Positions 35,843 to 55,773 are shown, numbered from the stretch's first letter. The stretch: 64,000 nucleotides of DNA from an uncultured virus (IMG/VR IMGVR_UViG_3300034157_000062) (IMGVR_UViG_3300034157_000062); one strand, 5' to 3'. Notes: generated by a model from the letters alone, not told the origin. Numbers and translations are program-made.

Positions 35843-35871
35843 TTGATTAAATGTATAAAATACCGTATACT
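35843..35871 (+). promoter_or_regulatory. sigma70 promoter of proS leader
   Basis: TTGATT-17 nt-TATACT. Confidence 0.65.
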
Positions 35872-35896
35872 AGGTCAATACATAGGAAATCATAAA

Positions 35897-35959
35897 ATGA
35901 AAACTAATATTGCATTATTCAAAACTATTCGACCTCTACCGCTCATGATAGGCGGCTAA
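35897..35959 (+). CDS. proS leader peptide MKTNIALFKTIRPLPLMIGG
   Basis: AGGA RBS; Pro codons CCT and CCG; followed by attenuator hairpins. Confidence 0.75.
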   Translation: MKTNIALFKTIRPLPLMIGG

Positions 35960-36009
35960 GACTCTATTTGCTTCTAAATTGACCTTAACGCCTATTATGG
36001 GCGTTTTTT
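35939..36009 (+). promoter_or_regulatory. transcription attenuator upstream of proS
   Basis: terminator AACGCCTA-TTA-TGGGCGTT-TTTT (35987-36009); its 5' arm CGCCTAT is complementary to leader ATAGGCG; CCGC/GCGG upstream hairpin. Confidence 0.75.
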
Positions 36010-36069
36010 ATTGCTCAAAATAAACGATTACAACACAATAAAATAAATCAATTTAAGAGGATACATATC

Positions 36070-37200
36070 ATGAAATTTTCAAACATATTTTTTAACAACA
36101 GTTCTTTCGCTAAAGACAACACATCATTGAACTTGGTAGACTTAACAAAGAAAGCGTGCTTCTTTAACCAAGATTCATCTGGGATTTATTCAACGTTGTC
36201 ATTAGGCTATATCTTAGAGAAGAAGATAGAACGCATCATCGAAGAAGAATTATCAGAGATAGGTTTTTCACAAATGCGTTTAAGTTTAATTCAAGACGCT
36301 GATTTGTGGAAAGAAACGGGCCGATATGATCAATACGGTGAAGAACTATTCAAATTAAAAAACAGGGCTGGAAAAGAACTTGTTTTGAGTGCTACTTGTG
36401 AAGAATCCATCACGAACATTGTAAAGTCTTATTACAATTTCACTAAAACTAATTTGAAGATGTTCCAAATAGGCAATAAGTATAGAGATGAGTTAAGAGC
36501 TAAGTCTGGGTTAGTACGTGGCCGTGAGTTCTTAATGTCAGATGCTTATCATTTCTCTAACAGTAAAGAGAATATTGTCACAACTTACAATGAAGTCAGA
36601 GAGGCTTACACCAGAATATTTAGCCGTTTAGGTTTAGAGTTTCACATTCAAGGATCAGATGTAGGAGAAATGGGTGGATTAGCTTCCGAAGAATTCCGTT
36701 GCATTAGCGAATTTGGTGAAGACATTGGTGAAGATGGCAGTAAGAACCTTGAAATAGGTCACATCTTTAACTTGGGCACTCACTACTCTGAGAAAATGGG
36801 TTTGTTGGATAATATTAAGCAACACGTTAATATGGCTTGCTTTGGTATTGGTGTATCCAGAACATTGATGGCTTTGTTAGAGAAACAGAGAGATGACAAA
36901 GGTTTCTTTGGTACTGCAGCATTCAATACCTTTGATTACATTATCACAGCCATTGATTATGAGAAGAATAAAGAAGTTGCTGACTCTATTTATCAATCAT
37001 TAAAGAAACAAGGCTATACTGTGTTATTAGATGATAGAAATGTATCGGCTGGTAATAAGTTCAATGACAGTGAATTGATTGGCGTTAGTAATAGAATTAT
37101 TGTCAGTAACAAAAGTATTATTGCCAACGAATACGAAGTTTTAAACAGAGAAACAAATGTTGCGAAAACAGTGAGCCTTGAAACGTTAAAAACATTGTAA
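36070..37200 (+). CDS. proS: prolyl-tRNA synthetase, short form without INS editing domain
   Basis: LWKETGRY, ATCEE, KYRDELR...GREFLMSDAY, LEIGHIF, FGIGVSR, LLDDR anticodon-binding domain. Confidence 0.92.
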   Translation: MKFSNIFFNNSSFAKDNTSLNLVDLTKKACFFNQDSSGIYSTLSLGYILEKKIERIIEEELSEIGFSQMRLSLIQDADLWKETGRYDQYGEELFKLKNRAGKELVLSATCEESITNIVKSYYNFTKTNLKMFQIGNKYRDELRAKSGLVRGREFLMSDAYHFSNSKENIVTTYNEVREAYTRIFSRLGLEFHIQGSDVGEMGGLASEEFRCISEFGEDIGEDGSKNLEIGHIFNLGTHYSEKMGLLDNIKQHVNMACFGIGVSRTLMALLEKQRDDKGFFGTAAFNTFDYIITAIDYEKNKEVADSIYQSLKKQGYTVLLDDRNVSAGNKFNDSELIGVSNRIIVSNKSIIANEYEVLNRETNVAKTVSLETLKTL

Positions 37201-38046: not shown

Positions 38047-38994
38047 TTATATTTTAAGCATTTTAATAACTGTAAGGTAATCCTTTAATGCTTCTGCTGA
38101 TTTAAATTCATCTGTTGTTCCATTGTTTTCTAATCCCACACAACTTTCAATGAAATATGCAAATATTGGGTTATAAAAAACTTCATAGTTCTTTATTAAA
38201 TAATCAAGTACTATATTCTTTTCATTTATCGAAAAATTATAATTTTTTAAGATTGTGGGTTGAATTTCTTCATTATCTTTATGTTGAAGTTTTAATTTTA
38301 AATCAGATTCGGTACAAAGATATATATTATCAGAAACACTAATTAAATGAATGAATACCTTGTCGATAGTTGTTTTATAGAGTTGAATCTGATGTTTAAT
38401 GCTATCGTTTAATTTAATAACATCATCACCGACAAAGCTATCTAAATTAGCTATATCTATTATATAGTAAGGATTATCTTGTAAATATAAAACGTTACTC
38501 TTCATTGTGACATTATTAATAAAATTATTTACTTTTAATAACCTAATCGTAGCATCTTGCCCCATCGTGGCACTACGAAGGCAATAAGAACCACACAATG
38601 GAATATTAATATTATCAATAAAGTCGTCATGAAAAAATTCTGTTTTTAAAATATTTTTAATATGACGATTAAAATAAGTGTTTAAGAATTTTATTCCATC
38701 TATCTCAATTGTTTTATAATTATTCTCAGGTACACAAATAGGATTTAAAGCAATTAAATTACCTGCTGATCTTACTCTAATGTTGATTCCATTTATACCT
38801 TTTGATAGATGGATATCACTTATGATGGGATGTTTTAATAGTATATAGCTTAAAACATCTTTAAGCTCTTCTTTTGTTTTTGTATTGTAGTAAGTCTTAT
38901 TTTTACAAATAAATTCAATAGCCGACATATCTGTTCCTAATAATTTTAGGAAACTATTTGCAACGGTCATCTCATGTTTTTCAATTGTTAACAT
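38047..38994 (-). CDS. paralog 4 of 4, PilT/GspE N-domain-like segment; Met(-4) motif
   Basis: SDIHLSKG...IRVR..G; ends YLTVIKMLKI. Confidence 0.7.
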   Translation of the reverse strand: MLTIEKHEMTVANSFLKLLGTDMSAIEFICKNKTYYNTKTKEELKDVLSYILLKHPIISDIHLSKGINGINIRVRSAGNLIALNPICVPENNYKTIEIDGIKFLNTYFNRHIKNILKTEFFHDDFIDNINIPLCGSYCLRSATMGQDATIRLLKVNNFINNVTMKSNVLYLQDNPYYIIDIANLDSFVGDDVIKLNDSIKHQIQLYKTTIDKVFIHLISVSDNIYLCTESDLKLKLQHKDNEEIQPTILKNYNFSINEKNIVLDYLIKNYEVFYNPIFAYFIESCVGLENNGTTDEFKSAEALKDYLTVIKMLKI

Positions 38995-39022
38995 ATTTAT
39001 TATTTCATCCTTATTATTCGAT

Positions 39023-39982
39023 TTATACTTTTATCATGTCAAGTGTTGTTAAATAATTTTTAAAGGCTTCTGGTGTCTTGAATTCTCCAATTAACGGGTC
39101 AAATTTTACTTGTGTCACATCTTCGATAAAAGCAGTAAAAATAGGGTCATAGAAATCGCTGTAATGTTTCAAGACATACTTTAAAATAGTTTTATTCATT
39201 TCTACCCTACCAATGCTGTAAGTATTAGGAATGATTACATTTATAGTATTGTTTCCCATGTATTCTAAAACAATTTTAATTTTGTTATATTTATAGATAT
39301 TTAATTTACCTTTAAATTTATTAAACATTTTATCAAGTTTACTTTCATAAAGATCGATTTTAGTTTGTATTTCAGGTGTGAATGTAACACCACTATTATG
39401 AATAAAACCTCCATTTATTAACTCAGCTTCGATAGTATAAATCGGATTTTCTTTTATTTGCAGTATATTATAATTAATATCAGTAGAGGTGTTGTTTTTA
39501 TTTTTAAGTATTCTTGTAATCCCATCATGTCCACAAGATGAGCTTCTTAGTCTATACATGCCAAACATTGGTATATCTAGATCACTATAAAAATCATAAG
39601 TTTGTCCAGTTTCCATTGAACTTGGACCTCTAATTTGTTCCAAAATATCTTTGAAGACATCTATAGCAAATGACTGGTTGTTAATCTTAGCTATTGCATA
39701 GTTATCATTAGCTGCAATGGTTATGGGGATGTCATGCATGTTACCATTTTTTCGAACTCTTAACCTTATTATTTTTTGATAAGAATCAAAGTTGAAATGA
39801 AGATCTGTTATATCCTTATAATTAACTAAAATATAAGTTAAAAAATGGTTAATAGTTTCTTTTGTTTTTGCATTGTAAAAAAAGTTATCTTTTTCAATAT
39901 AATCAATCGAACTTAAATCAGTATTAAGTAGACTTAAAAACTCATTTATTTTATCAAGATCATTGTTTTCAATTTTTAGCAT
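39023..39982 (-). CDS. paralog 3 of 4; Met(-4) motif
   Basis: TDLHF...RLRVRKNG; ends YLTTLDMIKV. Confidence 0.7.
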   Translation of the reverse strand: MLKIENNDLDKINEFLSLLNTDLSSIDYIEKDNFFYNAKTKETINHFLTYILVNYKDITDLHFNFDSYQKIIRLRVRKNGNMHDIPITIAANDNYAIAKINNQSFAIDVFKDILEQIRGPSSMETGQTYDFYSDLDIPMFGMYRLRSSSCGHDGITRILKNKNNTSTDINYNILQIKENPIYTIEAELINGGFIHNSGVTFTPEIQTKIDLYESKLDKMFNKFKGKLNIYKYNKIKIVLEYMGNNTINVIIPNTYSIGRVEMNKTILKYVLKHYSDFYDPIFTAFIEDVTQVKFDPLIGEFKTPEAFKNYLTTLDMIKV

Positions 39983-39999
39983 GACATCTATACCTCTTA

Positions 40000-40962
40000 T
40001 TATACTTTAATCATTTCTAGTGTTGTTAAGTAATTTTTGAAACATTCAGGATCTTTAAAATCTTCCAGTAATGAATCAGATTTTATTTCAGTGATGGTTT
40101 CTATCAGAGTCTTAAATATAGGCTTATAAAAAGATTTGTAGTTTTCTTTTAAATAAGCTAATAAAATTGAGCGGCTTCCATTATCTGATTTCAAGTAATG
40201 TTCGTAGTTACCATAAACATCAACAGTTATCGATCCAAATTTATCATATTCTAAACCAATAGATAATTTATTAGTCATATAATAACTGGTTACTTCACAA
40301 TGAGCATGTAACTTGTTTGTTTCTTCAATATAAAAATAGATATCATCTTCAATTTTTTTAGGTAGTTTGAAATGTGAGTTTTCAATAATCAATCCATCTT
40401 TAATTTTTAAATCAATTTTATAGAGAAGATTTCCATCTAAATTTAACCAATTAATGTTTGTAGCATAGAAAGGAAGAATTGTTGGTATTTTTATTATTCT
40501 AAATGCCGTAGAACTCTCCATCATTGCACTTATTATTACATATAAACCAAAATCTGGAATATACACTATGTCAGACGTATTGTTATCATCTATTTTTTTT
40601 GATATTAATCTTTGAATGTGGTCTTTAAAAAAAACTGTTGAAAATGAGAGTTTATTAATTCTTGCTGTTTCGTAATTATCAAATTTGTTAATTTCTATAT
40701 CAGTGAGGTGCCATGCTCCCATTTCTCTATACATAACATTAATCTTATTGGTGTTGTTGGTTTTAATAAGCAGGTCGCTTGTGTTGTTATAATTTTTCAG
40801 CATATAACTTAAAAAATCATGATCGGCTGTTAATTCAGCAGTAGTATATAATTCGTTATTTTTAATCACGTAATCAATAGATGAAAAATCAGTAGATATG
40901 ATATTTAAAAATTTATTAATTCTGTCTAGCTGCGTATCATTAATTTTTATCATTTTAAGCAC
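40000..40962 (-). CDS. paralog 2 of 4; Met(-4) motif
   Basis: ends YLTTLEMIKV. Confidence 0.7.
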   Translation of the reverse strand: MLKMIKINDTQLDRINKFLNIISTDFSSIDYVIKNNELYTTAELTADHDFLSYMLKNYNNTSDLLIKTNNTNKINVMYREMGAWHLTDIEINKFDNYETARINKLSFSTVFFKDHIQRLISKKIDDNNTSDIVYIPDFGLYVIISAMMESSTAFRIIKIPTILPFYATNINWLNLDGNLLYKIDLKIKDGLIIENSHFKLPKKIEDDIYFYIEETNKLHAHCEVTSYYMTNKLSIGLEYDKFGSITVDVYGNYEHYLKSDNGSRSILLAYLKENYKSFYKPIFKTLIETITEIKSDSLLEDFKDPECFKNYLTTLEMIKV

Positions 40963-40982
40963 CTTTTTAATCTAAGTTTTTG

Positions 40983-41981
40983 TTATACTTTCATCATTTC
41001 TAGTGTTGTTAGGTAATTTTTTAAACAGTCGGGGTCTTTAAAATTTCCATGCAATGTATCTATTTTAGTTTGTGTGACAGTTTCTATCAGGTTTTTAAAA
41101 ATAGGGTTATAGAATATGTGACAATTTTTTTTGATGTACTCTAAAAAATATTTTTTACCATTACATATCATGAAAACTGTTTCGTAATCACCGTAGACAT
41201 TCAAATTTATGTTTTCAAATTTGTCGTATTCTAAACCAATAGATAATTGATCATTTTTATAATACGCATTTTTTATGTAATATTTTGTAGTGATAGATCC
41301 CTCTTTGCACAGGATTGAGAACAATTTATTAATTTCATTAATGTAACAATAGATATCATCTTCGACTTGTTTAGGTAACTTGAAATTATGGTTTTCAACA
41401 ATTAATCCATCGACTAACTTAACATCAGTTTTGTATATAGGATTTTCGTCTATATTTAACCAATGAACAGTGCTTTGATTCTGAATTTTATCAGGCGTTA
41501 ATTTCATTAATTTAAATACAGATTCAGTCCCCATAACACCACTTCTTATTCTGTATAAACCACACTCTGGAATAAAGGCTATTACCAATTCATCATCATT
41601 CTGATGGTGTTTAGTCGTTATTTTTGATACATAATCTCTAAAACAATCAGTTGAACATGTGATTTCTGCGTTTGTGGCTGTCGTATAATTATCGTCATGA
41701 CTAATTAAAAGGTCCAGTAAATTATTTTTTATTCCATGTTCACGGGCAAATAGATTAATTTTCCCTTCATTTTTTTTATGCATCAATATTATTTCATTAG
41801 TGTTAGGATAATTTTTCAAAACATAACTCATTAAGTCATAGTCAGGAGGAAGTCTTTTGTTTGGATAAAATACGTTATTTTTGACCACATAATCAATAGA
41901 TGACAAATTAGTCAATAATCTACCTAAAAACGTATTAATTCTGGTCATTTCGTTGTCTTCAATCTTGATCATTGAGTTCAC
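40983..41981 (-). CDS. paralog 1 of 4; Met(-4) motif
   Basis: ends YLTTLEMMKV. Confidence 0.7.
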   Translation of the reverse strand: MNSMIKIEDNEMTRINTFLGRLLTNLSSIDYVVKNNVFYPNKRLPPDYDLMSYVLKNYPNTNEIILMHKKNEGKINLFAREHGIKNNLLDLLISHDDNYTTATNAEITCSTDCFRDYVSKITTKHHQNDDELVIAFIPECGLYRIRSGVMGTESVFKLMKLTPDKIQNQSTVHWLNIDENPIYKTDVKLVDGLIVENHNFKLPKQVEDDIYCYINEINKLFSILCKEGSITTKYYIKNAYYKNDQLSIGLEYDKFENINLNVYGDYETVFMICNGKKYFLEYIKKNCHIFYNPIFKNLIETVTQTKIDTLHGNFKDPDCLKNYLTTLEMMKV

Positions 41982-44599: not shown

Positions 44600-44759
44600 T
44601 TGTTCCTCATTAGTTTCTATTAGTTAACTATATTATTATAATACAAAAGTGATAATTATACAATCTTTTATTTTTTGAATAATAATAAAGGATTGTTATT
44701 ATACTTGATAATCTTGACATTTTTTGATATTATTGAACATATACAAGGTATTATTATCT

Positions 44760-45398
44760 ATGAGCACTGACGCCAAACCGTATAAAATAAATAAAGCATT
44801 CAATTTCGATGAACGATTATTAGAAGAATTTTCAAAAGAATCCTCGATTCCATTGGTTAGACCTGTTGGTGTATTTCATCTTGCTATTAAATTAAAAGAA
44901 GATCAAGAACCTTGTGTTGATGGTATTGGTTATCCAGCTCTTATTTGTCGTTATATTTTGAAAGACTACATCAAAGAAGACTATGACGCCTACTTACAAA
45001 GTATTTTCGCTACAATGAAACGTTATGGTCATTATGTGAATATTCAGTTTCAACGCCAGACGAAAAAAACTATTAGCATTACCTTAGCTGATAATTATCG
45101 CTCAATTAAGGACATCACCGCTATTAGTTTTGATTATGATATACATTTACGCGACAAAAAAAACATTTACCCAGACGCTCAAGTGACCATTGTGTTTGAA
45201 GGTGAATCAATCTATGAGTTCAGTATTGATGAAAATAATGAACCATATATTAAAATGGTTGTTAACTATAATGATTTAGATGGTTTCTTTATTAAATTTA
45301 TTGAAGCGTATAAAAATAAGTTTGCACGAAAACTAGGTGTTCAACGATCAACCGAGACAGCCCAACTTAAAATATTAGTTGACATGGTTCTTTTTTAA
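44760..45398 (+). CDS. hypothetical protein, paralog of ORF 45463; Met(-4) motif
   Basis: shared YIKEDYD and NYNDLDGFF; ends LVDMVLF. Confidence 0.75.
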   Translation: MSTDAKPYKINKAFNFDERLLEEFSKESSIPLVRPVGVFHLAIKLKEDQEPCVDGIGYPALICRYILKDYIKEDYDAYLQSIFATMKRYGHYVNIQFQRQTKKTISITLADNYRSIKDITAISFDYDIHLRDKKNIYPDAQVTIVFEGESIYEFSIDENNEPYIKMVVNYNDLDGFFIKFIEAYKNKFARKLGVQRSTETAQLKILVDMVLF

Positions 45399-45462
45399 AG
45401 ATCGTCTTGATTTAATATCATTAATTTGTATAATAACTAGTCTACTATAAGGTGATATTAAA

Positions 45463-46134
45463 ATGACAAATGAAGTTAAAATACATGAAATAGACAATCT
45501 TTTAAACATTGATAAAAATATTTTAACAGCAATTTCTGAAGAGTCTTCTCATTTTATTCTGGATAATGTTGTTGAATTTTCTATGTTTAATACTAAACCT
45601 ATGGATAACTCACATTTAGCGATTACATTAAAAAACGATCAAGCTCCTTTTGTTTCTTATTTAGGAGATCCTTCTATTATTTCGCGTCACATATTAAAAC
45701 CTTATATAAAAGAAGATTATGATATACTTTTGCAAACCATTTTCAAGAAAATTAAAAATTATGGAAAATTTATTGGTATAGATTTTCAGAGATTTACAAA
45801 GATGAGGATGAATATCACACTGGCTGATGATTATCAATCTATTCAAGACATCGAATCTTTTGATTTAGTTTATATTATGCTAATAAAGACATATCAATAT
45901 TATCAAGTGAAAGCGGATATCAGTATTGTATTTAATGGAGAGTCTGTTTATGATTTTAAGTATACTCAAGGTGATTATGCAACACTTAAAATGGTGATTA
46001 ACTATAATGATTTAGATGGCTTCTTCATGAAATTTGCTGAATCCTATCGAGATGAAATTTCAAAAAAATTAGGAGTAGAACACTCAACCGATATGTGGAA
46101 AATGCTAGCACTGGCTGAAATGTTTGTTATCTAA
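45463..46134 (+). CDS. hypothetical protein, paralog of ORF 44760; Met(-4) motif
   Basis: ends LALAEMFVI. Confidence 0.75.
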   Translation: MTNEVKIHEIDNLLNIDKNILTAISEESSHFILDNVVEFSMFNTKPMDNSHLAITLKNDQAPFVSYLGDPSIISRHILKPYIKEDYDILLQTIFKKIKNYGKFIGIDFQRFTKMRMNITLADDYQSIQDIESFDLVYIMLIKTYQYYQVKADISIVFNGESVYDFKYTQGDYATLKMVINYNDLDGFFMKFAESYRDEISKKLGVEHSTDMWKMLALAEMFVI

Positions 46135-46141
46135 TAGATAC

Positions 46142-46167
46142 AAAAAAACCGTAAATGAATACGGTTA
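46142..46167 (-). terminator. intrinsic terminator of the tRNA operon
   Basis: minus strand AACCGTA-TTCATT-TACGGTT-TTTTT. Confidence 0.7.
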
Positions 46168-46182
46168 TTGATGATTACAAAT

Positions 46183-46266
46183 TGGTGCGGAAAGTGGGAC
46201 TCGAACCCACACGCCTCTCGGCACTGGCTTCTAAGACCAGCGTGTCTACCATTCCACCATTTCCGC
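46183..46266 (-). tRNA. tRNA-Leu(TAG)
   Basis: cloverleaf, CTGGT-CTTAGAA-GCCAG, long variable arm, A73, encoded CCA. Confidence 0.95.
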
Positions 46267-46323
46267 ATAGACATTAACACTTCTTTTAAATATAGTTTAA
46301 ATAAACGTTTATTTTGTAAGAAA

Positions 46324-46404
46324 GTATTGAAGCTGCCTAGGATTCGAACCTATATCTTCCAATAGCACTTTTCCGCATCTTGCTTAGGATGGCAACTCCA
46401 ATAC
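46324..46404 (-). ncRNA. tRNA-like element with shrunken arms
   Basis: 14-bp terminal stem, intact T arm TAGG-TTCGAAT-CCTA, reduced D/anticodon/variable hairpins, no CCA. Confidence 0.5.
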
Positions 46405-46409
46405 AAATC

Positions 46410-46495
46410 TGGTGCCCGAAGACGGATTCGAACCGTCACTCCCTCACGGGAAGGGGATTTTAAGTCCCCCGCGTCTACCATTTCGCCATTCGGGC
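46410..46495 (-). tRNA. tRNA-Leu(TAA)
   Basis: GGGGA-CTTAAAA-TCCCC anticodon arm, ACCA end. Confidence 0.95.
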
Positions 46496-46506
46496 ATAAA
46501 AATCAG

Positions 46507-46604
46507 TAATTCAATATTTTAGAATGCATTTCAGCAAGCGTGTCTACCACTCCACCACCCCGTGTAAACACGAGAAAAGGATTCGAACCTTCGATATTGA
46601 ATTA
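46507..46604 (-). ncRNA. circularly permuted tRNA-Leu-like module
   Basis: 11-bp closing stem; order T arm, loop-closed 7-bp acceptor stem, Leu-type D arm, mini anticodon hairpin. Confidence 0.75.
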
Positions 46605-46608
46605 AATC

Positions 46609-46693
46609 TGGTCCCCGGAGCCGGACTCGAACCGGCACGCCTTTCAGCGGGAGATTTTAAGTCTCCTGTGTCTACCAATTCCACCATCCGGGG
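46609..46693 (-). tRNA. tRNA-Leu(TAA)
   Basis: GGAGA-CTTAAAA-TCTCC, ACCA end. Confidence 0.95.
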
Positions 46694-46712
46694 ATAAACA
46701 CATGTATCAATC

Positions 46713-46796
46713 TGGTGCGTTAGGTGAGACTCGAACTCACAATCCTTTCGGCACTGGCTTCTTAGACCAGCGTGTATACCATTCCACCACTAACGC
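46713..46796 (-). tRNA. tRNA-Leu(AAG)
   Basis: CTGGT-CTAAGAA-GCCAG, ACCA end. Confidence 0.93.
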
Positions 46797-46804
46797 ATAA
46801 TTTG

Positions 46805-46961
46805 TTACTTAGAACAGGAGTCGAACCTGTACGTTATAGAAGGCTATGCCTGTGTCTACCAATTCCACGACCTAATCATTTCTGCTTAGGGAAGGATTCG
46901 AACCTTCATCTATAACAAGAAGCTAGGCTTCTCGTGTCTACCACTTTCACCATCTAAGTAA
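46805..46961 (-). ncRNA. double tRNA-like RNA (permuted tRNA nested in the variable arm of a tRNA)
   Basis: two D arms and two T arms in order D-T-D-T with all connecting stems paired; see findings. Confidence 0.8.
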
Positions 46962-46963
46962 TC

Positions 46964-47047
46964 TGGTGCGGAAGGTGGGACTCGAACCCACACGCCTCAC
47001 GGCACTGGTTTCTAAGACCAGCAAGTCTACCATTTCATCACTTCCGC
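46964..47047 (-). tRNA. tRNA-Leu(TAG)
   Basis: CTGGT-CTTAGAA-ACCAG, ACCA end. Confidence 0.95.
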
Positions 47048-47069
47048 GTGATATTGCTTTACATCAATT

Positions 47070-47153
47070 TGGTGCCCCGAGGGAGACTCGAACTCCCACT
47101 CCTTTCGGAAGCGGATTTTGAATCCGCCGCGTCTACCATTCCGCCATCGGGGC
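47070..47153 (-). tRNA. tRNA-Leu(CAA)
   Basis: GCGGA-TTCAAAA-TCCGC, ACCA end. Confidence 0.95.
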
Positions 47154-47185
47154 TTATGTTGTAGCTACATTTGTTACTATAAATC

Positions 47186-47269
47186 TGGTGCGATTGGAGA
47201 GACTTGAACTCTCAATCCTTGCGGCATTGGCTTCTTAGACCAACGTGTATACCATTCCACCACAATCGC
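47186..47269 (-). tRNA. tRNA-Leu(AAG)
   Basis: TTGGT-CTAAGAA-GCCAA, ACCA end. Confidence 0.93.
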
Positions 47270-47272
47270 ATA

Positions 47273-47364
47273 TCTTAATGAGTAAAGGGACTCGAACCCT
47301 TACGCCTTTTAGGGGCATGTCTACGCTTAGACATTATGGCTACCATTACATCATACTCATAAGA
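47273..47364 (-). ncRNA. tRNA-Leu-like element with abnormal anticodon loop and no CCA
   Basis: acceptor ATGAGTA/TACTCAT, D arm, ATGTCTA-AGCG-TAGACAT, variable arm, AAGGG-TTCGAGT-CCCTT. Confidence 0.7.
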
Positions 47365-47455
47365 GGTTTGACTTTGATAATAGTGAGTTACAAATAATTA
47401 CTATGTTTCAAAGTTTCCAGTGGGAACCGGAGCAACCTAATTTTAAATCTTCATT

Positions 47456-47540
47456 TGGTGCGGAAGGTGAGACTTGAACTCACAATCAATTAAGAAACTG
47501 CTTTTGAGACAGTCGCGTTTACCAGTTTCGCCACATCCGC
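47456..47540 (-). tRNA. tRNA-Leu(CAA)
   Basis: ACTGT-CTCAAAA-GCAGT, ACCA end; one T-T mismatch in acceptor stem. Confidence 0.9.
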
Positions 47541-47592
47541 ATATTTATTTCTTGAAGCGTTTTTGTTTGTTTCCTTACTCTTCATGTTTAAC

Positions 47593-47621
47593 ATTCTATC
47601 AACTATATTCACCTTTGTCAA
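47593..47621 (-). promoter_or_regulatory. proximal sigma70 promoter of tRNA operon
   Basis: TTGACA-17 nt-TAGAAT with AT-rich upstream region. Confidence 0.75.
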
Positions 47622-47711
47622 TAACTATTTTAATTTATTTTAAAATATTTTCCTTTTGAATCAATGCTTTACGTTATTTATAGTTGTAGTTTATCCTAGA
47701 CATTCGCCCAT

Positions 47712-47808
47712 AAAAAAAGACCCTTTTGGGGTCCAGATGCGAAATGAGGCGATTGATTAGATTCGATTTCATCTGCATCTGGACAATCTAGTTGTCCAAA
47801 AATGCAGA
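47712..47808 (-). promoter_or_regulatory. attenuator (1:2 hairpin, 2:3 antiterminator, 3:4 terminator)
   Basis: 47792-47808 pairs with 47772-47786; 47775-47784 pairs perfectly (10 bp) with 47731-47740, overlapping terminator GACCC-CAAAA-GGGTC-T7 (47712-47733). Confidence 0.75.
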
Positions 47809-47818
47809 CAAATAGATG

Positions 47819-47881
47819 CTAGCCCAAGCTAAGTAATAGTGAGCATAAGAGTAGCAGTGATAATCGAATAGTTGTGAACAT
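47819..47881 (-). CDS. Leu-rich leader peptide MFTTIRLSLLLLCSLLLSLG
   Basis: GAGGA RBS; 9 of 20 codons are Leu: TTA x3, CTA x2, CTG, CTC, CTT, TTG. Confidence 0.85.
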   Translation of the reverse strand: MFTTIRLSLLLLCSLLLSLG

Positions 47882-47905
47882 GATTTCGTCCTCGTTAATG
47901 TTCAT

Positions 47906-47934
47906 ATTTTATCAAAGGTTCATTCCAAAGTCAA
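47906..47934 (-). promoter_or_regulatory. sigma70 promoter of the Leu leader
   Basis: TTGACT-17 nt-TAAAAT with extended -10 TG. Confidence 0.75.
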
Positions 47935-48010
47935 ATACTTTCGATACAGTTGACTTTAACTTATCAAGTTGTAAAGTATTCCAAATACTCAAACCTTAAA
48001 GGAGCTATAA

Positions 48011-48238
48011 ATGATTAAGCTAAAAAAACTTTTCGAATATATTCAGATTGCTTTTGGTATTATGCTTATAATAGGCATATTGATCCTTCCATTCACGTAT
48101 TTAGATTCTACACTTCCTAGTTATACAGTGATGTTATACTTCGTCATAGCCAGCACTCTATCTTGTGTTGCAGGAATTATTTATGCTTTCTATAAAGTTT
48201 TCATGAAAAAAGAAGCAACCTTTCCTGTTGAACAATGA
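48011..48238 (+). CDS. small two-TM membrane protein
   Basis: AAGGAG RBS; two hydrophobic segments. Confidence 0.7.
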   Translation: MIKLKKLFEYIQIAFGIMLIIGILILPFTYLDSTLPSYTVMLYFVIASTLSCVAGIIYAFYKVFMKKEATFPVEQ

Positions 48239-48951
48239 TGGACCTTTCTCATCTAGTGGTTATCTACAAGAAGCTCATTAAGCATTCTGATTATTCGGAA
48301 CCTTCGGATGTTTCTGTCATAGAATCAAATAGTATCCCATTACAGCCTACTGAACAATATCTGATTAAATCCATATCGACCGTGGATGAATCTGTTTTGA
48401 ATGCTATCTTTACACCAATTGACTCAAATGCGAAGGATTACTCACTGAACATCAGTTGTGAAGGTGTAAAAGTTCTCTCAACTATCAATACCTTCTTTGG
48501 TAAGCTACATTTTGAAAAAATAGATGAATTGGTTCAAGCTTATATCCAGACGGGTTTGGCTTTAAATGTGATTAGAGATGTCTCTTATCCAGCTCATGTC
48601 AATTTATCGTGGTTTTATACCCATCAAACGGTTTATCAATCCTTTGGCGAGTATTACCATTCTATCTATCGAGATTACAACAAGAGATTGGCTAAGGTTT
48701 CATTTTATGATGAAGTCACCAGAGTGGAATCAAAACCCTTAAAGCTGACGGCAAATTTAAACCTTTCAGTCATCAATAATAAATTAGTTCCCACGGTTGT
48801 GTTGTCTATTCCCTTTATTAAGAATAAGCACAGAATGGAAATCGTTATCAATCTCAATGAACCTTTTGATGGTCAACATTATAAAGTCTTATTTGAAGAA
48901 GCCTTTAAGAACGCTTCAAAGACCACCCGTAAAAAGAAAACAGCACATTAA
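48235..48951 (+). CDS. hypothetical protein with basic tail
   Basis: ATGA overlap; ends KTTRKKKTAH. Confidence 0.7.
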   Translation: MMDLSHLVVIYKKLIKHSDYSEPSDVSVIESNSIPLQPTEQYLIKSISTVDESVLNAIFTPIDSNAKDYSLNISCEGVKVLSTINTFFGKLHFEKIDELVQAYIQTGLALNVIRDVSYPAHVNLSWFYTHQTVYQSFGEYYHSIYRDYNKRLAKVSFYDEVTRVESKPLKLTANLNLSVINNKLVPTVVLSIPFIKNKHRMEIVINLNEPFDGQHYKVLFEEAFKNASKTTRKKKTAH

Positions 48952-50068: not shown

Positions 50069-51256
50069 ATGAAAAAAAAATCAATATTCACCCTAACCCT
50101 CCTAGGGTTTTGTGTTTCACATGCTGACTATTTTGTCACTATTCCATTAGAAATAAACAATATAAAATTTGATAATTGGGTTCCTACTGACAAGATCATA
50201 TCTATGTGGCAAATGTCTGGTTCTATTTATGATTGTTCTAATTGGAGTCCTCTAGCTTCAACAATAACAATTGAACAGCCATTTGTTCAAACAGCAACTG
50301 ATTGTAAACAAAATCAAGTACGAACTGTTCAAGAGAGAGAATTGGACAAAGTTTCTGGTAATGTTCGTAATGTTGGTGCTCCTTATACGGAAACACAAGT
50401 GATACAGGTAACTGATACAAAAAATGCTTTGGGTTCCAAAGAGACTTGGGCTTCTATTAGTTCATCATATACTACATGGACTAATGATGGTTCAATCATT
50501 AACTGTTCTAATTGGTCACCAGCACCATCAACAGTAACAATCGGAACATCTTATACTCAAACAGCTACTGATTGTCAGCAACCACAAATTCGTTCAAGAC
50601 AAGACCGTGAACAAGAGATGACAACAGGTTCTGTTAGAAATGTTGGTGCTGCTGTAACTGAATCACAAAGCATTACCGCTTCTTCAACAAGAGCAGCAAC
50701 AGGAGCAAAAGAAACATGGGTAGCCATTTCGTCCACTTCTACAGCGTGGGTTAATGATGGTGCATTAACAGGTTGTTCTAACTGGTCACCCGCCACATCA
50801 ACTGTCCCTGCAAACCAAGCATTTACTCAGACGGCTACAGACTGTAAACAACCACAAACTAGCATTAGACAAGATCGTGAACAGGAAACAACAACCTTAG
50901 CTATTCGTAATAAAGGTGTTGCTGTTACAGAGACACAAACATTAACTGTTTCGTCTACTCGATCCGCTACAGGCACTAAAATAATGAGTCAACAATCTTA
51001 TAATTCGAATACTCGCGTAATCTTAGAATATTGTGAAGGAACGACAGGTGGTTATATTAAATTTATGTGGAATGGAACTCAAGTTGGTATAACAACTGGC
51101 ACTTGGTCATCAGTAGCAAATGCTGCTGTCAATTATGGGGGGTACCGTTATACAGTCGGTCCTTATGTTGATAATATGGACTGGGATGATCAGGGTTGTG
51201 GATCAAATGGAGATGCAATGGATAATTATTACTATATTATAAGAACTCCATTATAA
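50069..51256 (+). CDS. secreted repeat protein (3 repeats), paralog of ORF 30711
   Basis: signal peptide ...SHA-DYFVTIP; three CSNWSP...QTATDC units; distinct C-terminal domain. Confidence 0.8.
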   Translation: MKKKSIFTLTLLGFCVSHADYFVTIPLEINNIKFDNWVPTDKIISMWQMSGSIYDCSNWSPLASTITIEQPFVQTATDCKQNQVRTVQERELDKVSGNVRNVGAPYTETQVIQVTDTKNALGSKETWASISSSYTTWTNDGSIINCSNWSPAPSTVTIGTSYTQTATDCQQPQIRSRQDREQEMTTGSVRNVGAAVTESQSITASSTRAATGAKETWVAISSTSTAWVNDGALTGCSNWSPATSTVPANQAFTQTATDCKQPQTSIRQDREQETTTLAIRNKGVAVTETQTLTVSSTRSATGTKIMSQQSYNSNTRVILEYCEGTTGGYIKFMWNGTQVGITTGTWSSVANAAVNYGGYRYTVGPYVDNMDWDDQGCGSNGDAMDNYYYIIRTPL

Positions 51257-52555: not shown

Positions 52556-53305
52556 TTGAAAAAGCGAATACGATACGCCAAACCCATTACAGTTGATGAA
52601 TTAGAGCATATCATTTTCAAAGTTGGTAAAACTGCAGTATTTGATGAAATAGGACTACAAGGAAAATTATTCAAACAAGCAGGCTTCATTGCAATCCCCG
52701 CCGTCACCGATTGTGAATATTACTTTAAAGATATGGGTGAACATTTATTACTTATAGCTGTTGAAGGTATTGTCAACACAAAACAAGTTTATATGTCAAG
52801 AAAATCATTGATATTAAACAATCCAAGAAATTTAAACATCTTAAAGAATTTAAACGATGATAATTATATTCATACACTATCAACCGTAGGTGATTCAGAA
52901 GAAACGGCTATCGGTAACGAGTTCTATATCAAGAGTAATACGAAACCTTGCAAAGAGGTATTCGACTCGCCTAAATACTTAAATGTTGAAGAATCTAATT
53001 TCACGTATGAAGTTTTTAAATATCAAGATTTCAAATACCGTATAGAACAAATATGGGTGACGGGTGTTATTGATGTACAATACATTTCGAATGAAGACAA
53101 TAATAACCTTATTGTGACTGATCTATCATTCTCAGAATATGGAACGTTGATATCTTACGCAGTGGAGAATAAGAAAGGTTCTATTAAATCGACCAACCTC
53201 AATTCACTGATTGATACCAGTCATGTCAATATAGATAACTATCATCTATTCTTTCAGAAGATAAATAAAGAAACACTCACAGTTATTGAAATGTTAATTG
53301 AATAA
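52556..53305 (+). CDS. paralog 1 of 4 (DNYHLF family); Met(-4) motif
   Basis: IDNYHLFFQK...VIEMLIE. Confidence 0.7.
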   Translation: MKKRIRYAKPITVDELEHIIFKVGKTAVFDEIGLQGKLFKQAGFIAIPAVTDCEYYFKDMGEHLLLIAVEGIVNTKQVYMSRKSLILNNPRNLNILKNLNDDNYIHTLSTVGDSEETAIGNEFYIKSNTKPCKEVFDSPKYLNVEESNFTYEVFKYQDFKYRIEQIWVTGVIDVQYISNEDNNNLIVTDLSFSEYGTLISYAVENKKGSIKSTNLNSLIDTSHVNIDNYHLFFQKINKETLTVIEMLIE

Positions 53306-53385
53306 TTAGGGGCTTAGGCTCCTTTTTTCATTGCTAAAAATAGCTTCCATGTGGTATAATAGTAAACTTTAATGAGGTTTACGTC

Positions 53386-54153
53386 ATGCTTTATATAAAA
53401 AATGTAGAACCCACTCTTGTTTTCGTAACGGCTGCTACCTCTCATGAACAATTGATTGGGTATATTAAAACAGTAGGAACTACCGTTTTTTTCAATAATT
53501 TCACCCAAGGAACTCTACGAGACTACCTTCATATTAATGGCTTCAAAAATGTGAGTTCATCAGTAAAAGTTCTTTATTATGCCGTGGTTGACAAAACTAT
53601 TCTGGTTATCCATCTTGATGGTCAGGTACTTAAAGAAAAGTATTGGGTTAAGTTGTCAGATGAAAACCTTGAGTATGTTGACACTTATGGCAAAGAAAAT
53701 GACGACTTCTTTATGTCATTTAGTACTGAACATATGTCGAATAACGATGTATATGAAATAACCACAGATGTTCCATTTTGTGAATATTTTGTTGTCATCA
53801 TGAATTCTGATAGCACTTCTAAATTCCCGCTGAGACGTGTTGATCTTTACTTTAAACATAAAACTAACCAATATTTGAGTGTTTCTATTTTCAACAAAAA
53901 AAATGGATTTGTTCAAATTCAATATGAGAACCCTGAACCCAATGGTGATTACTATTTTTCTGATTTTATGGAATTTGGGGCTGGCAGATTACTAGTCGCT
54001 AGAATCATAAATAGACACCGCCGAATAAATATAGATATCACCCCTGATTCTGAAATTGTTGATGTCAATGATATTAGTATAGATAATTTTCACTTATTTT
54101 GGGAAAAGTTAACTCCTGAACAACTTGTATTACTAGAAATGACCACTATATAA
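53386..54153 (+). CDS. paralog 2 of 4; Met(-4) motif
   Basis: DNFHLFWEKLTPEQLVLLEMTTI. Confidence 0.75.
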   Translation: MLYIKNVEPTLVFVTAATSHEQLIGYIKTVGTTVFFNNFTQGTLRDYLHINGFKNVSSSVKVLYYAVVDKTILVIHLDGQVLKEKYWVKLSDENLEYVDTYGKENDDFFMSFSTEHMSNNDVYEITTDVPFCEYFVVIMNSDSTSKFPLRRVDLYFKHKTNQYLSVSIFNKKNGFVQIQYENPEPNGDYYFSDFMEFGAGRLLVARIINRHRRINIDITPDSEIVDVNDISIDNFHLFWEKLTPEQLVLLEMTTI

Positions 54154-54167
54154 TTAGGAAAAATATT

Positions 54168-54950
54168 ATGATTGACTTAAAAAACATAGAGATGAATCTT
54201 ATTACATTAGACTCTGAAAATTTTAATGTTAATGAATTTTACAAATACATTCACAAGGTTGAAGTTTGTATGGCTTTCATAAATTTTGATAAATTCATGT
54301 TAGATGACTTATTTATTAATGCTGGTTTTACAAAAATTACGGGAGCAGAAAGTCCTCATTATTTTAAAATTATGGATTCCTTTATATTTGTTATTTATAT
54401 TGAGGCATCGGCGGCAAATTTTGTGATGCTTGAAAAATATTTTCTGATCAATTCAGAAAGAAATCTTTCAACTGTTAAGGCATTTGTACATAAAACTTTC
54501 AATGATGGTAATTTTGCAGATTTTCATAGTGATAGTGACGTATTTGATTATAAACTTTACCCAGAATCATTAGACATGCCATTTTATGTAAATTATCTTG
54601 TTCGATCTGCCTATGCTGTGCCGAAGCTTCTTCGTGTAGACTTAGGATTAAAGTATGGAAATGATAAATTTATGATCGCTTCTATTTTTGATAGAGATGA
54701 TGAATGTATACAGATAGCCTATGATACATATACAAAAGATTGTAATTATATGTATGCAGAATTCATTCAATTCGTAAATGAGAACGTTACAGATTTGAAA
54801 ATCTATACCCCACATAATCAGAAAACAATCTCTATAACACATTGTCTAGATGATTGTGATATAGATCTTATTACATTAGATAACTATCATCTTTTTTGGG
54901 AAAAATTAACATCTGAACAAATTTTATTGTTCGAAATGTCAGTTGTATAG
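54168..54950 (+). CDS. paralog 3 of 4; Met(-4) motif
   Basis: DNYHLFWEKLTSEQILLFEMSVV. Confidence 0.75.
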   Translation: MIDLKNIEMNLITLDSENFNVNEFYKYIHKVEVCMAFINFDKFMLDDLFINAGFTKITGAESPHYFKIMDSFIFVIYIEASAANFVMLEKYFLINSERNLSTVKAFVHKTFNDGNFADFHSDSDVFDYKLYPESLDMPFYVNYLVRSAYAVPKLLRVDLGLKYGNDKFMIASIFDRDDECIQIAYDTYTKDCNYMYAEFIQFVNENVTDLKIYTPHNQKTISITHCLDDCDIDLITLDNYHLFWEKLTSEQILLFEMSVV

Positions 54951-55017
54951 CTGATTGCTAGTATATATGGCAGTGAAAATTTGATAAGGTAGAGAACTTT
55001 AACGAGGGTTACACGGA

Positions 55018-55773
55018 ATGATGAATTTAAATAAAGTTAGTATGAAGCTAGATATTATAGATTCTGTCGCATGGAACATGGACTCATTTAACACGTCCAT
55101 ACAAAAACCAGCCACAAGTGTTTTCTTTAATAATTTTACATCACATGATTTAGATAGGTTTTTAAAAGAATCTGGCTTTGAGCAAATCGAGAATTTAAAG
55201 CTTTTTTATTTTAAGAAGGTTAATGACTTTATATTGATTATCAAATTAGAATCGAGACATATTAAAGAAAAGTATCTTATTCATTATACCGAAGATAATT
55301 TTGCTTACATACGAGACACAAAGAACTATGAGCAATCTTTTGAATCATTCCATAATGATGAGAAAAGAAATCACACACTTTATCCAGAAGGCGTAGAAAC
55401 ACCTTTTTATGAAAATTTCATGGTAAGGGAGAATTATGGAGATCCCACTTTAATCCGAACAGATGTTGGTTTTAAATATTTAAAAAATCGGTTTGTGATT
55501 GCGTCTCTTTATGAAAAGCATAAGAAACAAATTCAGATTTGTTATGATGATTACAGTCATAATCCAGATTGTATTCTTGCGGATGCTATTGGCTTTATTG
55601 GACAAGAGTTGACTGATGTAAAAATACTGAGTACAAAAAGTGGTAAACGGATATCGTTATTAGATCATAAAGATGTATTTGATGTAAGCGATGTCACCAT
55701 TGAAAACTTTCATCTTTTCTGGGAGCGTTATACAACAGAAGAACAAACCTTACTGGCAATGTTGCTGATATGA
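55018..55773 (+). CDS. paralog 4 of 4; Met(-4) motif
   Basis: ENFHLFWERYTTEEQTLLAMLLI. Confidence 0.75.
   Translation: MMNLNKVSMKLDIIDSVAWNMDSFNTSIQKPATSVFFNNFTSHDLDRFLKESGFEQIENLKLFYFKKVNDFILIIKLESRHIKEKYLIHYTEDNFAYIRDTKNYEQSFESFHNDEKRNHTLYPEGVETPFYENFMVRENYGDPTLIRTDVGFKYLKNRFVIASLYEKHKKQIQICYDDYSHNPDCILADAIGFIGQELTDVKILSTKSGKRISLLDHKDVFDVSDVTIENFHLFWERYTTEEQTLLAMLLI

Follow-up and report, generated by a model that had tools for sequence, protein, structure and literature searches.

A putative leader-peptide transcription attenuator ahead of an array of tRNA-Leu genes

Control of bacterial transfer RNA (tRNA) genes is generally regarded as global, exerted through growth rate and the stringent response rather than on each tRNA species separately. 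Might some be controlled by the very codons that their products read? The question is raised by a stretch of DNA of 64,000 nucleotides (nt) from an uncultured virus (IMG/VR IMGVR_UViG_3300034157_000062), which we refer to, at its full length, as ‘the window’. In it, eight genes for leucine tRNA follow a promoter, a short open reading frame (ORF) rich in leucine codons, and an intrinsic terminator. An earlier interpretation made from the sequence alone (here, the sequence-only reading) proposed that this arrangement monitors the decoding of leucine codons and adjusts its own supply of tRNA-Leu. Comparison and modelling (conservation, codon-matched leaders elsewhere, leaders of synthetase genes, and RNA folding) argue for that proposal, and we regard the locus as probably a ribosome-mediated leader-peptide transcription attenuator that has been retargeted to tRNA genes.

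Coordinates are those of the whole window throughout. The leader and the array are read on the minus strand, from 47934 down to 46141, and the control region comprises the following parts.

47934-47906, minus strand: promoter P1, TTGACT-17-TAAAAT with a TG extension, 10/12 match to consensus
47893-47889, minus strand: Shine-Dalgarno sequence GAGGA, 7 nt 5' of the ATG at 47881, invariant in three lineages
47881-47819, minus strand: leader ORF, 20 codons plus the stop codon TAG, MFTTIRLSLLLLCSLLLSLG
47869-47862, minus strand: 5' strand of pairing P0, ORF codons 5-7, AUUCGAUU, pairing with 47768-47761 (8 nt, 100% complementary)
47817-47813 with 47790-47786 and 47811-47806 with 47797-47792, minus strand: hairpin 1*, an alternative, local hairpin, part of the minimum free energy (MFE) structure of the transcript ending at 47728; modelled only, and in the model occupying segment 1 as long as the nt immediately past the stop codon are free
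47811-47792 with 47786-47769, minus strand: hairpin 1:2, 18 base pairs (bp) with a 2-nt bulge, -21.0 kcal/mol
47784-47769 with 47747-47731, minus strand: antiterminator 2:3, 10 perfect bp and 6 more, -23.0 kcal/mol
47734-47712, minus strand: intrinsic terminator (hairpin 47734-47718), GGACCC-CAAAA-GGGTCT followed by a T run, -8.6 kcal/mol
47621-47593, minus strand: promoter P2, TTGACA-17-TAGAAT with TG, 11/12, preceded by an A/T-rich block and located 3' of the terminator
46166-46147, minus strand: array-end terminator, AACCGTA-TTCATT-TACGGTT, with a T run to 46141

The sigma70 promoter at 47906-47934, the ribosome-binding site ahead of the ATG, and the 20-codon ORF can all be read directly as the sequence-only reading had described them. 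Nine of the 20 codons specify leucine (TTA three times, CTA twice, and CTG, CTC, CTT and TTG once each), so all six synonyms are present. Leucine makes up 8.4% of the codons in 61 window ORFs, among which its synonyms are used in the shares TTA 0.405, TTG 0.191, CTT 0.190, CTA 0.092, CTG 0.066 and CTC 0.057; nine leucine codons drawn at this usage would cover all six with P = 0.047. Among the 615 ATG ORFs of 12-40 codons in the six frames of the window, ten are leucine-rich or contain the six kinds, and the leader is the only one with all six synonyms. A density of at least nine leucines per 20 codons is reached at 75 of 127,882 positions of the window and 238 of 362,422 of G001, a related genome described below. 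We take the codons to be read by wobble as follows: the three TTA and the TTG by UAA and CAA, the two CTA and the CTG by UAG, and CTT and CTC by AAG, if the latter is deaminated to inosine. On these standard wobble rules, the nine leucine codons test every anticodon species of the array (UAA, CAA, UAG and AAG). The hydrophobic peptide that the ORF encodes is similar to a signal or transmembrane segment, and its leader is present in one copy each in the window and G001.

Beyond the ORF, an inverted-repeat search and folding agree on what had been seen by eye: mutually exclusive hairpins, a perfect 10-bp antiterminator, and a terminator. The proposed switch includes an inverted repeat of 10 nt at 100% (GTCCAGATGC/GCATCTGGAC, 47784-47775 with 47740-47731); further inverted repeats in the leader are TCTGCAT/ATGCAGA and TGGACAA/TTGTCCA. 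Antiterminator 2:3 overlaps the terminator stem by 3-4 nt, and hairpin 1:2 competes for segment 2, so the structures exclude one another. Folding of the leader RNA is more stable than that of 200/200 dinucleotide shuffles (z = -4.83). One detail needed correction: the stop codon had been placed 10 nt before hairpin 1, but hairpin 1:2 extends to 18 bp and starts 7 nt past the stop. Terminator-like sites number five in the region, against 1.6 +/- 1.5 in shuffles. Promoter-like sites are no more numerous than in shuffles (8 versus 6.3 +/- 1.9), and P1 and P2 are set apart only by how good they are and where they lie. Between the terminators at 47712 and 46147 there are tRNA genes only, and no protein gene for biosynthesis, transport or a synthetase. 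A search of 46100-48000 returned 20 matches at E up to 10, none of them to an Rfam leader family, Leu_leader or T-box. P2, with its 11/12 match, lies downstream of the terminator, so the attenuator would modulate expression rather than gate it, as the sequence-only reading had cautioned.

How well is this unit conserved? A profile of the family of a flanking protein led to three metagenome loci, all of which carry a syntenic all-leucine array with 11-13 genes by ARAGORN. L002 is identical to part of G001, and L003 to part of L004, which leaves three independent lineages: the window, L002/G001 and L003/L004. DNA identity is 72-80% in the flanking genes versus 89-90% in the block of array plus leader. 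Variable positions among the three lineages are distributed as follows.

Upstream of P1: 46 of 76 positions
P1: 2 of 29
5' untranslated region: 5 of 24
ORF with stop codon: 2 of 63
All paired segments together: 1 of 72
1:2 loop: 1 of 5
2-3 spacer: 7 of 21
Terminator to P2: 11 of 90
P2: 9 of 29
P2 to tRNA: 16 of 52
First tRNA: 6 of 85

None of the 35 positions in the arms of antiterminator 2:3 varies, against the 7 of 21 in the spacer that they enclose, and the intrinsic terminator at 47734-47712 is invariant as well. The paired positions of hairpin 1:2 are also invariant, its changes being one T fewer in the T-run of the bulge and a loop C to T; the sole change scored in a paired segment is this missing T, which can be placed equally well in the bulge. 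Within the ORF, the changes are Cys13Ser and stop TAG to TAA, and all nine leucine codons keep their exact synonym. From these alignments, the unit of P1, ORF and switch appears to be the best conserved part of the locus. A leader ORF that was not conserved in homologous loci would, according to the sequence-only reading, have spoken against it; instead the ORF, every leucine codon and every stem are kept in all three lineages. Two other ideas about the stop codon were considered and set aside. Amber suppression was suggested by a frame that stays open for 40 codons past the leader TAG, through the hairpins and the terminator, to the next in-frame TAG, and by a tRNA-like element with a CUA anticodon in the array; it was rejected because L003/L004 have TAA in its place, and because TAG, the last codon of 3 of 61 window ORFs, shows no sign of recoding. 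A possible G-C to G-U to A-U path, joining stop-codon position 47819 with position 47791 in the loop, could be accommodated by no more than a 4-bp CUAG:CUAG helix, and with three sequences is no evidence.

The direction of control, which could not be read by eye, was modelled by equilibrium folding of the transcript ending at 47724, with a ribosome footprint masking -12 to +15 around the P site. In a transcript that ends before segment 3, the MFE fold is P0 plus 1:2, and P0, as part of this fold, locks the terminator-permissive arrangement. When the 3' end lies at 47731-47724, and segment 3 is out, the MFE fold flips to 1* plus 2:3 (-42.2 to -43.0 versus -40.7 kcal/mol), and completion of the terminator makes the terminator fold the most stable (-49.3 kcal/mol). 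The modelled probability of pairing 2:3, P(2:3), is 0.90 without a ribosome and does not drop below that value while the A site occupies codons 2-18. Once the A site has reached codon 19, codon 20 or the stop, P(2:3) falls to 0.03 or less, and P(1:2) is 0.92-0.94. Varying the 3' edge of the footprint from +11 to +17 leaves P(2:3) for a ribosome at the stop codon at or below 0.06 in all three lineages, and for a stall at leucine codons 7-17 gives 0.90-1.00 in the window, 0.76-1.00 in L003 and 0.25-0.99 in L002. Under an equilibrium model and an assumed footprint, then, the switch is clean in the window and in L003, and weaker in L002. The footprint-constrained folding proposed as a check on the sequence-only reading thus yields a single direction: a ribosome at the stop codon would favor the terminator, and one stalled at leucine codons 7-17 the antiterminator. 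What the model establishes is that control in this direction would be coherent; it does not establish that such control takes place.

The locus might therefore be imagined to work as follows. P1 would start a transcript with a 63-nt translated test ORF, whose 20 codons, nine of them for leucine, would interrogate all of the anticodons of the array. If leucine codons were decoded quickly, the ribosome at the stop would cover 47817-47809 and block hairpin 1*. Segment 1 would then pair with segment 2, segment 3 would remain free, the terminator would form, and the P1 transcript would end at about 47712. If the ribosome stalled at leucine codons 7-17, 1* and 2:3 would form, and transcription would run on through P2 into the eight tRNA-Leu genes. 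P2 would furnish a basal, unattenuated supply, to which the switch would add without gating it. The sequences themselves show the anatomy, its conservation, the codon match of two arrays and the sister leaders of synthetase genes; we infer that the ORF is translated, that 1* plays its part, that control runs in this direction, and that the trigger would be a shortage of usable tRNA-Leu. Making more tRNA would remedy a lack of usable tRNA-Leu, but not a lack of leucine. The sequence-only reading had named cleavage of host tRNA-Leu or a codon-usage mismatch as possible causes. That tRNA damage is what causes the shortage is a guess, made from the RNA-repair genes of G001.

The sequence-only reading had suggested looking for amino-acid-matched leaders in front of other tRNA arrays. 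One was found. An Rfam scan of G001 gives 27 tRNA matches, in two clusters only. The second cluster comprises six Ala-UGC, one Ala-GGC, two Arg-UCU, one Arg-CCU, two tRNAs with anticodon CAU and one odd element; one of the CAU tRNAs is Ile2-like, its best matches being Escherichia coli genes annotated tRNA-Ile (83% over 94% of its length), and the other has no E. coli match. Upstream of this array come, in order, a promoter (TTGACT-17-TATAAT, 11/12), a 13-codon ORF, MNIQLTIRARAIS, alternative hairpins and a 12-bp terminator. The control codons of the ORF match the tRNAs of the array: ATA-AGA-GCC-AGA-GCG-ATA is the only run of six codons from the set {GCN, AGR, ATA} in 362,506 codon positions of G001, and no such run occurs in 127,966 codon positions of the window. 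The MNIQLTIRARAIS peptide is hydrophilic, and its leader shares the architecture of the leucine leader, whose peptide is hydrophobic. P2 and the A/T-rich module of the leucine locus are repeated past this terminator, ahead of the second array, with 79% identity over 184 nt; used as a probe of viral contigs, the P2 module returned at least 115 stretches, among which by BLAST only the two G001 loci are real. When the second leader is folded with the A site at codons 5-11, the 2:3 fold forms, and the 5' arm of the terminator is paired upstream at 0.46-0.62, versus 0.24 without a ribosome and 0.34 with one at the stop. In the full-length equilibrium model the terminator is at 1.0 in every state, and only the truncated-transcript model discriminates.

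Leaders of the same design, with the same type of promoter and with cognate codons, also occur ahead of synthetase genes in these genomes, where a scan for units of Shine-Dalgarno sequence, ATG, short ORF and terminator found three. In G001, the leader MTIRFIADNNDNFAQLSVGLSVA (DNNDN) has its terminator 58 nt before a gene for AspRS of the non-discriminating type, and the leader MKTLNTFVNSIIIIPKLPMS (IIII) is followed by a terminator and then by IleRS; these units, DNNDN before AspRS and IIII before IleRS, lie at G001:C1 ~6630-6760 (minus strand) and ~116290-116500 (minus strand). The third is in the window, at 35843-36069 (plus strand), where ORF MKTNIALFKTIRPLPLMIGG (35897-35959; PLPL) and a terminator (35987-36005) precede a ProRS of 376 amino acids (36070-37200, plus strand). 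The ProRS leader is about 95% identical to its counterpart in G001, and the DNA upstream of it diverges. The model shows a like trend here: the value of 0.66-0.82 for the IleRS, ProRS and AspRS leaders falls to 0.16-0.36 after the ribosome passes the control codons, except for AspRS at the stop codon itself (0.70). An 8-mer, ACTATTCG (Thr-Ile-Arg), stands directly before the control codons in the leucine, proline and aspartate leaders, and five of its nine occurrences in the window and G001 are in leader ORFs (window 47872 and 35924; G001 79831, 62250 and 6743); the second-array leader carries ACT ATA AGA where the others carry ACTATTCG. Shared design and the shared 8-mer place the tRNA leaders in one local family with leaders of a known kind, attenuators ahead of synthetase genes being described in PMC1262725. 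A broader proposal is tentative, the balance tipping slightly against it: a modular leader, with one type of promoter, a Thr-Ile-Arg motif and exchangeable control codons, could stand before synthetase genes and tRNA arrays of a replicon of ~1.9 Mb rich in ORFs without relatives (ORFans), and provide a demand-driven supply for decoding, in which the transcription of each tRNA set is set by the speed at which its codons are read. Feedback on tRNA genes would then be resolved to the isoacceptor, and on a mobile or viral replicon it could serve at the same time to sense that host tRNA had been depleted or cleaved.

Several observations weigh against attenuation by a translating ribosome. The geometry is non-classical, in that the leucine codons do not overlap segment 1, and the switch relies instead on a small hairpin, 1*, that is present only in the model, with its assumed footprint and its equilibrium. 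Until segment 3 has been transcribed, the MFE fold contains hairpin 1:2, and the RNA would therefore have to refold. The contrast modelled for L002 is weak (P(2:3) 0.25 without a ribosome, and 0.25-0.99 at leucine codons), and the AspRS leader with a ribosome at its stop codon models as antiterminated (0.70). All of the stems are invariant, so no compensatory change supports any helix; P0 and the hairpin in the ORF lose pairs in the relatives without compensation, P0 keeping 6/8. Third positions of the non-leucine codons are frozen too, which peptide coding alone does not explain. A 95-nt spacer after the first tRNA-Leu gene (47361-47455, minus strand), which matches no recognised RNA family, is nearly as well conserved as the tRNAs, with a mean column identity of 94% in the aligned block, so that some of the conservation may belong to the locus as a whole, and the comparison rests on three fairly close lineages. 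P2, the stronger match at 11/12, follows the terminator, so the array can be expressed without P1. Finally, extra tRNA would not relieve a shortage of leucine itself.

Other explanations can draw on some of these observations. If the switch is real, it might be read by a protein, by a tRNA in the manner of a T-box, or by a small RNA acting on the conserved 5' leader, with the ORF incidental or playing another role. An ORF frozen at the nucleotide level, including its non-leucine third positions, looks like constraint on RNA sequence, the leucine codons miss segment 1, and without a ribosome 2:3 and 1:2 are near-isoenergetic, all as such a reader would permit. It would need no match of codons to genes, yet that match recurs in a leader of unrelated sequence, through a run found once in 362,506 positions, and in three synthetase leaders; moreover the Shine-Dalgarno sequence and the ATG are conserved, the search of 46100-48000 at E up to 10 turned up no Rfam family, T-box or leader, and the candidate sites for pairing with a tRNA 3' end are, by eye, UGGA and not the UGGU expected for A73-CCA ends. 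We consider a non-ribosomal reader unlikely. A stop that merely leaks, so that P1 yields a short leader RNA, perhaps acting in trans, and a constant trickle of read-through with no sensing of leucine, strikes us as similarly improbable. The completed terminator is the MFE fold by ~6 kcal/mol, L002 shows little modelled contrast, the tRNAs can come from P2, and attenuator RNAs with trans functions exist (rnTrpL); such a stop leaves unexplained the leucine-codon content, the conservation of synonyms, the conserved antiterminator, and the codon-matched leaders elsewhere in these genomes.

Least probable, and in our opinion very much so, is that P1, ORF and terminator form a self-contained gene for a hydrophobic peptide of 20 residues (a membrane peptide, or one like a type I toxin) or for a small RNA, while P2 drives the tRNAs. 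The sister leader, MNIQLTIRARAIS, is hydrophilic and has the same architecture; the leader is single-copy in the window and in G001; and the only antisense promoter-like site is weak (9/12), its -35 not kept in the relatives. The 10+6 bp pairing of 2:3, overlapping the terminator, would have no role in a plain terminator, and linkage to an all-leucine array in three lineages would be coincidence. To its credit, the unit does have its own promoter and terminator, with P2 following, and its peptide is hydrophobic; leucine-rich small ORFs are not rare, nine others of the 615 reaching 35% leucine, and mRNAs of type I toxins also have alternative folds and nucleotide-level conservation. Attenuation by the ribosome is the explanation that we favor.

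The array itself extends from 47540 to 46183. Its members are listed below, the canonical genes first.

47456-47540, minus strand: tRNA-Leu (CAA)
47186-47269, minus strand: tRNA-Leu (AAG)
47070-47153, minus strand: tRNA-Leu (CAA)
46964-47047, minus strand: tRNA-Leu (TAG)
46713-46796, minus strand: tRNA-Leu (AAG)
46609-46693, minus strand: tRNA-Leu (TAA)
46410-46495, minus strand: tRNA-Leu (TAA)
46183-46266, minus strand: tRNA-Leu (TAG), the last gene of the array
47277-47360, minus strand: non-canonical tRNA-like element, 8-nt anticodon loop, no CCA
46882-46960, minus strand: degenerate tRNA-like element, anticodon CTA, 29.6 bits, no CCA
46806-46877, minus strand: degenerate tRNA-like element, 23.4 bits, no CCA
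46329-46409, minus strand: non-canonical tRNA-like element, no CCA, seen only at a relaxed ARAGORN threshold

ARAGORN finds 10 tRNA genes in the whole 64-kb window, all of them inside this array, and Rfam finds 8 above the gathering score. Each of the eight canonical tRNA-Leu genes, which reach 54.8-62.9 bits, has A73 and encodes its CCA; their anticodons are, in order, CAA, AAG, CAA, TAG, AAG, TAA, TAA and TAG, each kind exactly twice. Anticodon AAG is that of the genes at 47186-47269 and 46713-46796; Leu anticodons that start with A are unusual in bacteria. There are no ORFs of 70 amino acids or more on the array strand. The sequence-only reading correctly counted eight tRNA-Leu genes uninterrupted by any protein gene, but left at least four non-canonical tRNA-like elements of the array unmentioned. 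The anticodon loop of the element at 47277-47360 differs in all three lineages (TAAGCGTA, TTCGCTTA and TTCACATA), and the rest of it is nearly invariant. At about 46520-46600 (minus strand), a tRNA 3' half (T arm) can be seen by eye, followed by a 5' half (acceptor and D arm); these may be fragments, or a permuted piece. tRNA array units have been defined, in PMC4758250, as at least 20 tRNA genes at a density of at least two per kb; with eight canonical genes (10 by ARAGORN) in ~1.36 kb, the present array has the density and not the number.

What kind of DNA carries this locus? The window has a G+C content of ~31%. AGGAG-type sites and TATAAT boxes precede most of its ORFs, which indicates expression of the bacterial type; a giant virus of eukaryotes, hinted at by aminoacyl-tRNA synthetase, AsnB, Fpg, UvdE and many ORFans, was rejected on these grounds. 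A Pfam family could be assigned, at E up to 0.001, to 11 of the 64 ORFs (among them UvdE, GAPDH, AsnB, TrxB, the 376-residue ProRS, Fpg and two transporters), and 53 have none; of 53 ORFs tested against PHROG, three match, none of them a structural family. The proteins that resemble TrxB are mostly from Pseudomonadota. Many families of tandem paralogues are present (four ORFs at 38047-41981, four at 52556-55773 and two at 44724-46134). Two proteins (30711-32984 and 50069-51256) consist of repeats of ~90 residues, 44-57% identical to one another, with conserved Cys and NWSP motifs, and one of the two has a start resembling a signal peptide.

The protein that flanks the locus in the window occurs on a contig of 1,917,244 bases, and its relatives on contigs of 1.84 and 1.86 Mb. 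G001 is labelled a provirus in IMG/VR, with 58% completeness by CheckV. Its genes include IleRS, AspRS, RtcB, an Rnl1-like ligase fused to a phosphoesterase, PTH2, a ClpB-like protein, an OmpA-family protein and a pilin-like protein. Of these, RtcB, the fusion of Rnl1-like ligase and metallophosphoesterase, and the PTH2-type peptidyl-tRNA hydrolase form, with a HAD domain of the ‘Swiss Army Knife’ RNA-repair proteins, a set for RNA repair or tRNA care (G001:C1 8791-10227, 95908-98259, 142435-142764 and 161057-161509). No phage structural family was found among 77 Pfam-negative proteins of G001 or 53 proteins of the window. Phage and plasmid collections yielded only generic tRNA-Leu matches, a search of viral contigs with the flanking protein at 48235-48951 found no relative, a search of genome contigs with Fpg found one locus (31% identity), and the species-genome collection contains no close relative. 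The replicon may be that of a small, odd bacterium, or a giant mobile element.

An attenuator before tRNA genes would close a direct loop, in which slow decoding of given codons would lead to more transcription of the tRNAs that read them. The leucine locus is a clean test case, its array serving one amino acid and its leader sampling all six codons, and these genomes provide internal controls in the synthetase leaders of known kind and in a second array with different control codons. If true, this would account for the way in which large, AT-rich elements that carry tRNA sets of their own balance supply and demand, and it would offer a natural sensor of tRNA shortage, with possible use as a reporter.

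In full-text literature searches, with subscription-only papers outside their scope, we found no description of a leader-peptide attenuator that controls tRNA genes. A leader ORF before E. coli pheV, considered as a precedent, was not borne out, the promoter abutting the tRNA in the pheV sequence. Leader-peptide attenuation is known for amino-acid and synthetase genes; here it would be placed before tRNA genes. Its individual traits have counterparts in several known systems. Like the tandem P1-P2 promoters of rrn and several tRNA operons, it has two strong sigma-70 promoters before stable RNA, and an A/T-rich block upstream of P2. Those promoters are controlled at initiation, by growth rate and ppGpp, and have neither a translated ORF nor a terminator between them, as the present locus does. 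Its array resembles those of phages and mobile elements in being dense and redundant, with decayed copies and anticodon-loop variants, beside RNA-repair genes (RtcB and Rnl1-like ligase); it is smaller than the arrays of at least 20 genes defined in PMC4758250, and confined to one amino acid, and the literature searches turned up no case of leader-peptide control of a phage or mobile array. T-box riboswitches likewise let the choice between terminator and antiterminator in a leader report on one tRNA species to genes for the same amino acid. They bind uncharged tRNA directly, need no translation, and, as noted, have no match here; they are not known to control tRNA genes.

The closest relatives in design are the leader-peptide attenuators themselves. 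leuL, the leader of the enterobacterial leuABCD operon (Leu_leader in Rfam), has a short ORF with leucine codons, mutually exclusive antiterminator and terminator hairpins, an intrinsic terminator, and read-through when leucine codons are read slowly, which here is modelled. leuL controls biosynthetic enzymes, and the present leader would control tRNA-Leu genes; leuL uses a run of one or two kinds of leucine codon, and here there are all six. Here also, the control codons lie upstream of segment 1, the modelled switch operates through an extra hairpin beside the stop codon, a second promoter follows the terminator, and the leader matches no Rfam leader, Leu_leader included, at E up to 10. In pheM-pheST and other synthetase attenuators, as at this locus, the regulated product is part of the machinery that decodes the amino acid being sensed. 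At this locus, however, the product is the tRNA itself, so that the loop would sense and supply the same molecule, and would do so for several isoacceptors at once.

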